Origin: a virus
DNA: 31,052 nucleotides
Virus genome (UHGV): UHGV-0144805
Reading direction: 5' to 3' (one strand)
The notes under the pieces were generated by a model. It did no database searches. It worked only from the letters and a program-made list of their open reading frames with translations, and was not told the origin of the DNA. The position numbers and the translations under genes are program-made. This document shows positions 25,517-27,191 of the stretch, piece after piece; the stretch's first letter is position 1, and the number at the start of each line of letters is the position of its first letter.

Positions 25517-25519
25517 ATA

Positions 25520-25536
25520 TTTGCTCTAATAAATTG
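25520..25536 (+). promoter_or_regulatory. C1-operator-like 17-mer TTTGCTCTAATAAATTG (15/17) just after pacB
   Basis: Read from sequence 4 nt after the pacB stop. Confidence 0.5.
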
Positions 25537-25661
25537 TGTTTTTTAGCTACCGATGTTACATTGAACCTGACCTCTTGCGCCTTGTGGCATTTTCGGTTTA
25601 TGCTTATCAGGCACCTCATTAAAACGGGTGCCGGGATTGGCCTCCCGCTTAAGTCTAAGGC

Positions 25662-25695
25662 GATACAGACGCCGCTCGCGTCTTTTTTTGTATCG
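25662..25695 (+). terminator. Rho-independent terminator/attenuator hairpin
   Basis: gatacaGACGCcgctcGCGTCtttttttgtatc: GC stem plus 7 T, flanked by an outer inverted repeat. Confidence 0.55.
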
Positions 25696-25854
25696 GCGTA
25701 CACGCACACCTCTACAATGGTGGGCTGTATGGGGCTACCTTCGGGTAGGCTGGTTACCTTGGACGCCAGTAAGGCCAACTCCGTACAGTCCACCGCCAGC
25801 AAGATTGGTCTCTTCTGCGGTGGTTACATACCAACGTCTAAGGAGGCTGCCAAT
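25696..25854 (+). promoter_or_regulatory. Structured leader of the small-ORF/antirepressor operon (sigma70-like TTGTAT-19-TACAAT, UUCG-capped hairpin, AAGGAGG SD)
   Basis: Promoter-like hexamers at about 25688-25718, hairpin CTACC-TTCG-GGTAG at 25735-25748, SD before the ATG at 25855. Confidence 0.35.
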
Positions 25855-26076
25855 ATGGCTACTATCCCTACCCCAACTCATCCTGAATTTATCTGGCGCT
25901 TTTACTCCTGCCAAAAACGTCACTATCACTTCGTTATTGCACCAACAGAAGATGAGGCCCGCTCTCAGCTTCCTGACGCCCCATGTATTTTCTCTGCCCG
26001 TTTTTCCACTGATTCACGCAATTCTCTCAGTTACTGGTGCCTCCCTGTTAACGCTTCTGCTCAGGAGGGACTATGA
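25855..26076 (+). CDS. Small protein (73 aa) translationally coupled to the antirepressor (icd-like position)
   Basis: Strong SD AAGGAGG 7 nt upstream; stop overlaps the next start (ATGA); it is the C-terminal part of track ORF 25513-26076, whose upstream part lacks a credible start. Confidence 0.45.
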   Translation: MATIPTPTHPEFIWRFYSCQKRHYHFVIAPTEDEARSQLPDAPCIFSARFSTDSRNSLSYWCLPVNASAQEGL

Positions 26077-27191
26077 GAACGTCATTAGTCACCCGTGAAG
26101 AGATGATCGAGGCAATTGAACAGCACACTGCCTGTATCAGTACCAGGGATATACCAGGCGTTATTGCCAACTACTTCATGATCACCAAACAACTTTACCG
26201 GAGAAAGGACAAGAACGCGGTTCACCGTATCCTGTTGTCTGATATCCGCGAATACCTGCTCGAACAGGGTCATCTGAATTACGCAACCGTCGCAGCCGAA
26301 GCACGCAAGGAGGCACACAGAATGAAAGCAACTAACGTTAAATCAGAAAAAATTCATGCACCTTCAGTTCAGGAATCGGAGCTGGTGGTTGTTCAGAATC
26401 AGTCTGATGAAATTCCCGTTCTGGAATGGCAGGGAGTGCGTGTAGTGACAACCGAGACTCTTGCTAGAGGGTATGGGACAGAAACAATCCGTATTCGCCA
26501 AAATCATCATGAGAACAAAGTACGCTTTGTTGAAGGGAAGCACTTTTTCAAAGTTGAAGGAGAATCATTGCGCGAGTTGAAGCACAGAGTAGCTTTAAAC
26601 TACTCTGTAAAAATTGCTCGCAATGTTCGCTCACTCACCCTCTGGACAGAACGCGGCGCAGCCCGCCACGCTAAAATGCTCGAAACCGATCAGGCATGGG
26701 CATTCTTTGAAAAACTGGAAGACAGCTACTTCCGACAAAAAGAACAGCAACCGATCGCAATCCCCCAGACGCTTCCTGAAGCCCTACGCCTGGCTGCCGA
26801 ACTGGCTGAACAAAAGCAACTTCTGGAACAGAAAGCCCACCAGCTAAATCAGCAGCTGGTGGCCGCCGCTCCTAAAGTCGATTTTGCCGACCGGGTATCA
26901 GTAGCTAAAGGGATCCTGATTGGGAATTTTGCAAAGGTTGTTGGACTTAAGCAAAACGCGCTGTTTGTCTGGTTACGGGAGAACGGCATCCTGATAGCGT
27001 CCGGTGGACGTAAAAATGTGCCGTTCCAGCAGTACATCAACGCGGGGTATTTCACGGTGAAAGAAGTGGTGCTGGATGATGAAGATGGCTACCAGATACG
27101 GTTGACGCCTCAATTAACGGGTAAAGGCCAGCAGTGGTTGACGCGTAAACTGCTCGATGCTGGCTTGTTAAAACCGGTGGCAGCTGAATAA
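26073..27191 (+). CDS. Phage antirepressor (Bro-N/ORF6N-like N-terminal region plus KilAC/ANT C-terminal domain)
   Basis: Central VLEWQGVRVVTTETLARGYG... and C-terminal DFADRVSVAKGILIGNFAKVVGLKQNALFVWLRENGIL (KilAC-like); stop codon directly abuts the transposon inverted repeat. Confidence 0.65.
   Translation: MRTSLVTREEMIEAIEQHTACISTRDIPGVIANYFMITKQLYRRKDKNAVHRILLSDIREYLLEQGHLNYATVAAEARKEAHRMKATNVKSEKIHAPSVQESELVVVQNQSDEIPVLEWQGVRVVTTETLARGYGTETIRIRQNHHENKVRFVEGKHFFKVEGESLRELKHRVALNYSVKIARNVRSLTLWTERGAARHAKMLETDQAWAFFEKLEDSYFRQKEQQPIAIPQTLPEALRLAAELAEQKQLLEQKAHQLNQQLVAAAPKVDFADRVSVAKGILIGNFAKVVGLKQNALFVWLRENGILIASGGRKNVPFQQYINAGYFTVKEVVLDDEDGYQIRLTPQLTGKGQQWLTRKLLDAGLLKPVAAE

Follow-up and report, generated by a model that had tools for sequence, protein, structure and literature searches.

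The DNA analysed here, referred to as the window, is a stretch of 31,052 nucleotides (nt) from the virus genome UHGV-0144805, and its source element is a P1-like (Punavirus) phage-plasmid. Between the end of pacB and a transposon, at positions 25517-27191, lies a complete paralogue of the P1/P7 immunity operon immI, with a structured leader followed by the genes icd and ant. For P1, Citron, Schuster and colleagues reportedly found that the antisense RNA C4 is cut from read-through transcripts and blocks icd together with the coupled ant, while in the absence of a cognate C4 the antirepressor Ant inactivates the repressor C1. The annotation of P1 (NC_005856) summarises this C4-icd-ant control, and gives the upstream boxes a1 and b1 a putative role only. 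We consider it very probable that positions 25517-27191 represent an intact second operon of the immI type, inserted between pacB and c1, in which icd and ant are gated by C4. The features of this module are as follows, all on the + strand.

25520-25536, +: predicted C1-operator-like 17-mer TTTGCTCTAATAAATTG, at the position equivalent to P1 Oc4/Op51 (AATGCTCTAATAAATTT)
25534-25562, +: candidate promoter a, TTGTGT-N17-TACATT, with the -35 overlapping the operator and the layout of P1 P2c4/P51a; proposed by eye and by positional analogy
25575-25604, +: candidate promoter b, TTGCGC-N18-TATGCT, which aligns with P1 P1c4/P51b; weak consensus
25611-25690, +: IsrK-type 'a1b1' small RNA, two hairpins and then an intrinsic terminator
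25637-25643, +: a1 box TTGGCCT, in the loop of the second hairpin of the IsrK-type RNA
25653-25660, +: b1 box GTCTAAGG, in the IsrK-type RNA
25667-25683 and T-run, +: intrinsic terminator of the IsrK-type RNA, from a terminator scan
25719-25797, +: C4 antisense RNA (Rfam RF01695 match 25713-25800)
25757-25764, +: b' CCTTGGAC, in the loop of C4 hairpin 2
25772-25778, +: a' AGGCCAA, in the single-stranded joint of C4
25805-25811, +: a2 box TTGGTCT, just after C4; 7 pairs with a', one of them G.U
25836-25843, +: b2 box GTCTAAGG, overlapping the icd Shine-Dalgarno sequence AAGGAGG (25840-25846)
25855-26076, +: icd homologue, 73 amino acids (aa)
26073-27191, +: ant1-like antirepressor gene, 372 aa
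26307-27191, +: predicted Ant2-like nested frame, with Shine-Dalgarno AAGGAGG at 26307-26313 and an in-frame ATG at 26322 (codon 84)

Leader RNAs, icd and ant

A reading of the DNA made from the sequence alone (hereafter the sequence-only reading) had recognised an immI-like layout of operator, c4 in the leader, icd and ant at a non-canonical place, and had proposed a search of the leader for a c4-like RNA and its target boxes. Both ideas were borne out. The Rfam family C4 (RF01695) matched over its full length with 75.9 bits (E = 2e-13, gathering threshold 45), and a2 and b2 were found downstream of it. The fold agrees with the family structure (minimum free energy of -41.8 kcal/mol, z = -4.06), and the C4 stem is followed on its 3' side by CCA (25796-25798) and preceded by a conserved CAAT. 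A hairpin with a UUCG loop that had been listed as a feature of its own is present, and turned out to be the first hairpin within C4.

Upstream of C4, positions 25611-25688 match the isrK family (RF01394) over its full length with 60.8 bits (gathering threshold 50), whereas the overlapping match to the c4-a1b1 family (RF03163) reaches 20.5 bits and stays under its threshold of 46.7. In the canonical immI leaders of P1, P7, RCS47, JL22, 673R5 and D6 the scores at the same spot are mirrored, with c4-a1b1 above and isrK below threshold. Because of this mirroring, IsrK and a1b1 are to be regarded as one kind of object, namely upstream copies of the C4 target boxes followed by a terminator. The sequence features of an IsrK RNA are found in the module, i.e., the RF01394 match above gathering, two 5' hairpins, a terminator, and icd and ant downstream. 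The terminator-like hairpin of the sequence-only reading exists, with its T-run, as the terminator of this IsrK/a1b1-type RNA.

The 73-aa open reading frame (ORF) with a strong Shine-Dalgarno sequence and the 372-aa ORF behind it are as previously described. The product of the former is identical to P1 Icd at 54 of its 73 residues and matches NCBIfam phage_ICD_like (49.8 bits) as well as PHROG 1426 (1e-45). Its stop codon overlaps the ant start as ATGA (26073-26076), an arrangement that suggests translational coupling. Ant is homologous to P1 Ant1 (56% identity overall) and matches PHROG 63, anti-repressor Ant (1e-131); the KilAC-type C-terminus claimed for it corresponds to the Pfam domain ANT/KilAC (PF03374) at residues 260-361 (107.9 bits, 4.4e-31). 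Similarity to P1 Ant1 is concentrated at the two ends (approximately residues 1-85 and 230-370), while the centre is unrelated and consists here of an ORF6N domain (Pfam, residues 116-202, 70.1 bits, 2e-19). The ATG at 26322 lies at +249 nt from the ant1 start, the same offset as that of P1 ant2, and the residues RKEAHRM are conserved around this Ant2-type start.

The C1-operator-like 17-mer that had been noticed right after pacB was recovered with 2 mismatches to the C1 operator consensus ATTGCTCTAATAAATTT, and its core is kept in nearly all related copies. Sites of this kind with at most 3 mismatches occur six times in the whole window, compared with 0.12 expected from shuffled sequences. 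The other five, with 1-3 mismatches, are located at 9165-9181 (-), 12790-12806 (+), 12839-12855 (-), 14932-14948 (+), and 22214-22230 (+), the last one being just 5' of lpa, which matches the placement of Olpa/Op94 in P1.

Behind the operator, the hexamers of candidate promoter a are kept in most copies, and candidate promoter b is invariant across related copies, with a predicted start at approximately 25611, where the IsrK model begins. The sub-threshold RF03163 alignment begins at 25598, and in P1 it likewise begins at the P1c4 -10. By analogy with P1, both promoters may be in use. The promoter-like TTGTAT-19-TACAAT of the sequence-only reading did not hold up as such. The hexamers are there (25688-25693 and 25713-25718, with a 19-nt spacer), but they were not called by the promoter scan, a start approximately 7 nt past TACAAT would land within the C4 stem, the P1 annotation has no promoter at the equivalent place, and the spacing is variable, as copies of the RCS47/JL22 type carry a 21-nt insertion between the two hexamers.

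Pairing, alleles and the canonical operon

In the window, a' pairs with its targets at 7/7 and b' at 8/8 positions, and the order of parts (operator, a1, b1, c4, a2, b2, icd, ant1/ant2) is collinear with the annotated P1 immI. IMG/VR was scanned for exact matches to a conserved 30-mer, which added 55 loci to the copies from named phages. Among 58 scorable copies, three a-alleles (TTGG(C/T)CT, TTGAGAC, and TTGGAAC) and three b-alleles (GTCTAAGG, GCAAAAGG, and GTCAAAGG) were present in five a/b combinations. In 57 of the 58, a' can still pair fully with a1 as well as a2, and b' with b1 as well as b2, the exception being locus L042, with a mismatched a1.

Pair counts were taken from 17 distinct sequences of this module only, as a joint alignment placed the canonical immI rows out of register in C4. 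Within C4, 27/27 internal pairs hold and 9 of them changed on both sides. The target pairings (a'-a2 and b'-b2) are likewise paired in 100% of the cells, and in 7 of their 15 pairs both partners have changed; for a'-a2 taken separately this applies to 4/7 pairs, with none broken. Stems and target pairings together thus amount to 100% paired positions and 16/42 pairs changed on both sides, against 26-49% paired in slid controls. The a1-a' and b1-b' pairings behave similarly (99.6% paired, 7/15 changed on both sides, slid controls 31-55%). It is difficult to account for such a register over three sites unless pairing was under selection.

The same module occupies the spacer between pacB and c1 in vB_EcoM-673R5 (99.3% identical), RCS47 (92.6%), and JL22 (88%), and in each of these a canonical immI, with a C4 and an a1b1 element of its own, is present as well. 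Because both operons are present in these three genomes, the module is most probably an additional copy and not a relocated immI; of the two origins that had been considered for its position, a rearrangement or a distinct arrangement, it is the former that becomes improbable. A P7-type origin is not supported either, as the similarity of the P7 and phiW39 immC records to the window stops with pacB, and the module is not a P7 feature. Nor is it simply the sequence that normally follows pacB, since in P1 only 24 bp separate the pacB stop from the c1 stop and immI is approximately 45 kb distant.

The recognition sequences of the two operons differ as well. The module has TTGG(C/T)CT and GTCTAAGG, compared with TTGACAG and GTTAGTG in P1, and it is unlike every canonical immI examined; in 673R5, RCS47, and JL22 the canonical operons have sequences like those of P1 or P7, or still other variants, none of them related to the sequences in the module. 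Counted in register, any cognate combination of C4 and target gives 7/7 pairs at a and 8/8 at b, whereas a C4 of the window type forms 4/7 and 2/8 pairs with the canonical targets of 673R5. P1 and P7, a known heteroimmune pair, give 6/7 and 6/8. The duplex energy of the b' loop points in the same direction, with -13.9 kcal/mol for the cognate leader vs. -5.6 to -8.1 kcal/mol for non-cognate ones. The module is accordingly an additional immunity module that is predicted, from its recognition sequences, to be orthogonal. Since it departs from the canonical immI in these sequences, independent regulation of both operons within one genome is to be expected.

The canonical immI is multi-allelic too. 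Its b-site reads ACGAATG in 673R5 (L006:1084-1345) and ACTTACG in D6 (L010:1508-1766), both different from P1 (GTTAGTG) and P7 (GATTGTG), and the canonical immI of JL22 combines the a-site of P1 with the b-site of P7.

Distribution, variant copies and flanking genes

Where a copy has enough flanking sequence, the module nearly always lies immediately 3' of pacB, with c1 next to it on the opposite strand; copies that break this rule are few and have been rearranged or interrupted. At least 80% of the module was found in 290 PLSDB records, and an uninterrupted P1-type junction in 314, so that approximately four in ten P1-like plasmids of this database carry it. It was also present in 257 of 5,426 complete E. 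coli genomes, mostly on plasmids. In plasmid pE2-2, the module is 100% identical to that of the window and ant-related sequence is found at two places.

Several copies depart from this pattern. The L042 locus from IMG/VR (5042-5310) has the leader of the module 3' of pacB joined to an Ant1 of the P1 type (93% identical to P1 Ant1), its downstream sequence is unlike the usual ant-c1 spacer, no c1 was found within 3.2 kb, and its a1 does not match its own C4; it looks like a recombinant between the two immI paralogues. In L061, approximately 1.3 kb of extra DNA, which may be an insertion element, separate the leader from ant, and probably likewise in L063, where the contig ends at the ant start. 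An apparent tandem duplication in L028 (1115-2710, copies 1,566 bp apart) was set aside, as an N at the junction makes an assembly or scaffolding artefact probable. In the record of vB_EcoM-673R5 (L001:6672-8671), the annotation shows ant as a 'Roi' protein of 258 aa and has c1 in fragments in spite of the high DNA identity, and it is likely that this record contains frameshifts or sequencing errors.

Outside P1-like plasmids, related leaders with IsrK, C4, and an Icd-like ORF (83-89% identical) are carried by P4-like integrative elements of chromosomes, in which there is a primase but no ant. Two such elements are those of L067 (3001-3301) and L068 (3001-3249), on E. coli chromosomes; both have an AntA/AntB-type gene and a primase, and L068 shows an integrase. 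In L068 the IsrK-C4 unit is followed by an Icd-like ORF, and in L067 it lies within an annotated 'ash family protein' ORF, the label that PGAP gives to leaders of this kind.

The flanks of the module in the window, with the gene order pdcB, lpa, pacA, and pacB upstream, are as follows.

21169-22212: pdcB
22301-22753: lpa
22839-24032: pacA
24032-25516: pacB, with the stop codon TGA at 25514-25516
27192-27229, no strand: right boundary, a 38-bp terminal inverted repeat of a Tn3-family transposon that starts immediately 3' of the ant stop codon (TAA)
27339-28199, -: blaTEM, inside the Tn3-family transposon
approximately 28382-29008, -: tnpR, inside the Tn3-family transposon

Relatives cease to resemble the window at 27191. 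In pE2-2, a spacer of 32 nt, which includes the hairpin GCCCGGTTGATGCCGGGC, separates the ant stop from the c1 stop, a layout which implies that the transposon in the window splits ant from the shared hairpin and c1. The c1 gene of the source element must therefore lie past the window end, with the transposon in between. A PLSDB search for the exact junction of ant and transposon returned no record covering it, the search being swamped by blaTEM matches. Elsewhere in the window, a tRNA-Met gene (anticodon CAT) was detected at 1295-1370 by both ARAGORN and Rfam.

Proposed control, rival readings and meaning

Transcription would start 3' of the C1 operator, and most transcripts would end with the IsrK-type a1b1 RNA, at its terminator, with C4 being carried on those that read through and its 5' end presumably cut by RNase P, by analogy with P1. 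The b' and a' segments of C4 would then pair with b2, over the icd Shine-Dalgarno sequence, and with a2, so that translation of icd, and hence of the coupled ant1/ant2, is blocked. As the upstream a1 and b1 can pair with the same C4 segments, they could act as competitors or decoys that set the amount of free C4. Upon entry into a cell without a cognate C4, Icd and Ant would be made, and Ant is expected to inactivate C1. Competition for C4 by conserved copies of a1 and b1 on a self-terminated RNA is the most likely role of these boxes, and the activation by IsrK, in trans, of the small ORF and antirepressor of Gifsy-1 (PMC4825925) fits it. The natural alleles should define immunity specificities among P1-like elements.

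Several points weigh against this scheme or limit how far it can be taken. The candidate operator deviates from the C1 consensus at two positions, and its control by C1 is a prediction from the sequence. The consensus promoter scan called neither promoter a nor promoter b. Crude duplex energies at a' discriminated poorly due to off-register pairings, which makes the in-register counts more informative. The co-variation goes back to few independent events, as C4 falls into two deep lineages and each site has three alleles. Furthermore, the ORF6N centre of Ant could give it a target other than that of P1 Ant, a transposon follows directly after the ant stop codon, and the position of the canonical immI is outside the 31-kb window.

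The concern about Ant leads to the strongest of the rival readings, in which the RNA control works as proposed but the ORF6N-centred Ant acts on something other than C1, either on the repressors of other prophages (cross-induction, as described for Gifsy antirepressors) or on DNA. This is unlikely. It would account for the replaced central third of the protein, the RNA switch is evidently modular given that the IsrK-C4-Icd leaders of the P4-like elements stand next to unrelated genes, and antirepressors that act in trans between prophages are documented (PMC3121763). However, Ant closely resembles P1 Ant1 over its N-terminal 85 and C-terminal 140 residues and retains the Ant2 start, a C1-operator-like site is present, and the module sits beside c1 in essentially all copies. 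A single immI that was merely relocated by rearrangement is improbable. Apart from the limited reach of the window, this view could draw on plasmids with a single ant-related place and on the existence of recombinants between the two loci (L042), but it has to contend with the presence of both operons in 673R5, RCS47, and JL22, with the two ant-related places in pE2-2, and with the divergence of the two operons (Ant 56%, Icd 74%, other C4 alleles), which is that of paralogues and not of a moved copy.

We also give little room to the idea that the module is a silent remnant without current function in its source element. The abutting transposon and the interrupted or truncated database copies (L061, L063, and the truncated annotation in 673R5) would suit it, yet all parts are intact and identical to those of pE2-2, and the three-way co-variation and the diversification of alleles indicate continuing selection. 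Least credible of all, and rejected here, is the notion that the leader codes for an 'Ash family' protein (ORF 25513-26076, in frame with icd) and that the RNA matches are incidental. PGAP does assign the label 'ash family protein' here in many records, and Pfam Phage_ASH (PF10554) gives 44.5 bits for residues 35-126 of this ORF, conceptually 187 aa long, but this match covers exactly the IsrK and C4 genes. Moreover, no Shine-Dalgarno sequence precedes 25513, which overlaps the pacB stop, the leader substitutions are compensatory for RNA pairing, and the coding frame is not conserved, as it is broken by indels that separate close copies (T-runs that vary between 6 and 9 bases, single-nucleotide indels, and a 21-nt block). 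It is probable that the label 'ash family protein' at this spot stands for RNA genes and not for a protein.

Set against known systems, the module resembles the immI of P1/P7 in its C4 above the Rfam threshold, the b2 box over the icd Shine-Dalgarno sequence, the ATGA junction of icd and ant, the nested Ant2 at +249 nt, and the predicted C1-type operator upstream, and its specificity would be set by a' and b' as in P1/P7 heteroimmunity. It differs in the upstream RNA, which scores as isrK and not as c4-a1b1, in the ORF6N centre of Ant, in its location in the pacB-c1 spacer instead of between sim and kilA-repL, and in sharing genomes with a canonical operon. As far as its sequence can tell, the module would qualify as an immI operon in everything except map position.

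The isrK-orf45-anrP region of Gifsy-1 in Salmonella is similar in that read-through of the intrinsic terminator of an IsrK-family RNA leads into a small ORF coupled to an antirepressor, and IsrK was shown to activate the translation of these two genes in trans (Hershko-Shalev et al. 2016, PMC4825925). A processed RNA of approximately 80 nt that is complementary to IsrK, STnc1160, lies downstream (PMC4825925) and would be the C4 counterpart. The published model differs in relying on alternative mRNA structures, with no C4 antisense RNA invoked (PMC4825925); in addition, the host is a lambdoid prophage, and the small ORF of our module is a full 73-aa Icd. The leaders of the P4-like elements share the IsrK-C4 unit followed by an Icd-like ORF and are related to the RNA-based immunity of P4, but small ORFs and the primase follow instead of ant, and there is neither a C1 operator nor a pacB/c1 context. 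The insertion itself has been seen before, as Venturini et al. 2019 (PMC6906374) described an ant insertion between pacB and c1 in pTZ20_1P and RCS47, consisting of 'two short hypothetical orfs' and ant, at the same place as in the window. Neither C4, a1b1, nor target boxes figure in their account, and specificities are not compared there. In our literature search, which left much of the older P1 work outside its range, this one-sentence mention (PMC6906374) was the only trace of a 'second immI', with C4, a1b1, targets, and alleles undescribed. Modules of this kind are common and known, and what is newly pointed out are the RNA parts at the pacB-c1 position.

In E. coli and Salmonella, P1-like phage-plasmids often carry resistance genes, and the window itself has blaTEM beside the module. 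It is the immunity systems of such elements that decide which of them can coexist, and which exclude or induce each other. Since the module is common in PLSDB and its RNA alleles are unlike the canonical ones, the immunity relations among P1-like elements are probably more finely divided than in the classical P1/P7 picture. The co-variation of decoy, antisense, and target provides a clean natural data set on a1 and b1, whose role is annotated as putative in P1, and ties them to the experimentally studied IsrK. A more far-reaching possibility, which we put forward tentatively and hold to be somewhat less probable than its opposite, is that a single repressor is the target of two antirepressor operons, each gated independently by an antisense RNA, the second with at least 3 x 3 alleles kept in register at decoy, antisense, and target, which together with the canonical alleles could form a combinatorial immunity code in which the IsrK-type decoy sets the switching threshold. 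If true, such a code would decide which co-infecting P1-like elements displace or induce each other.

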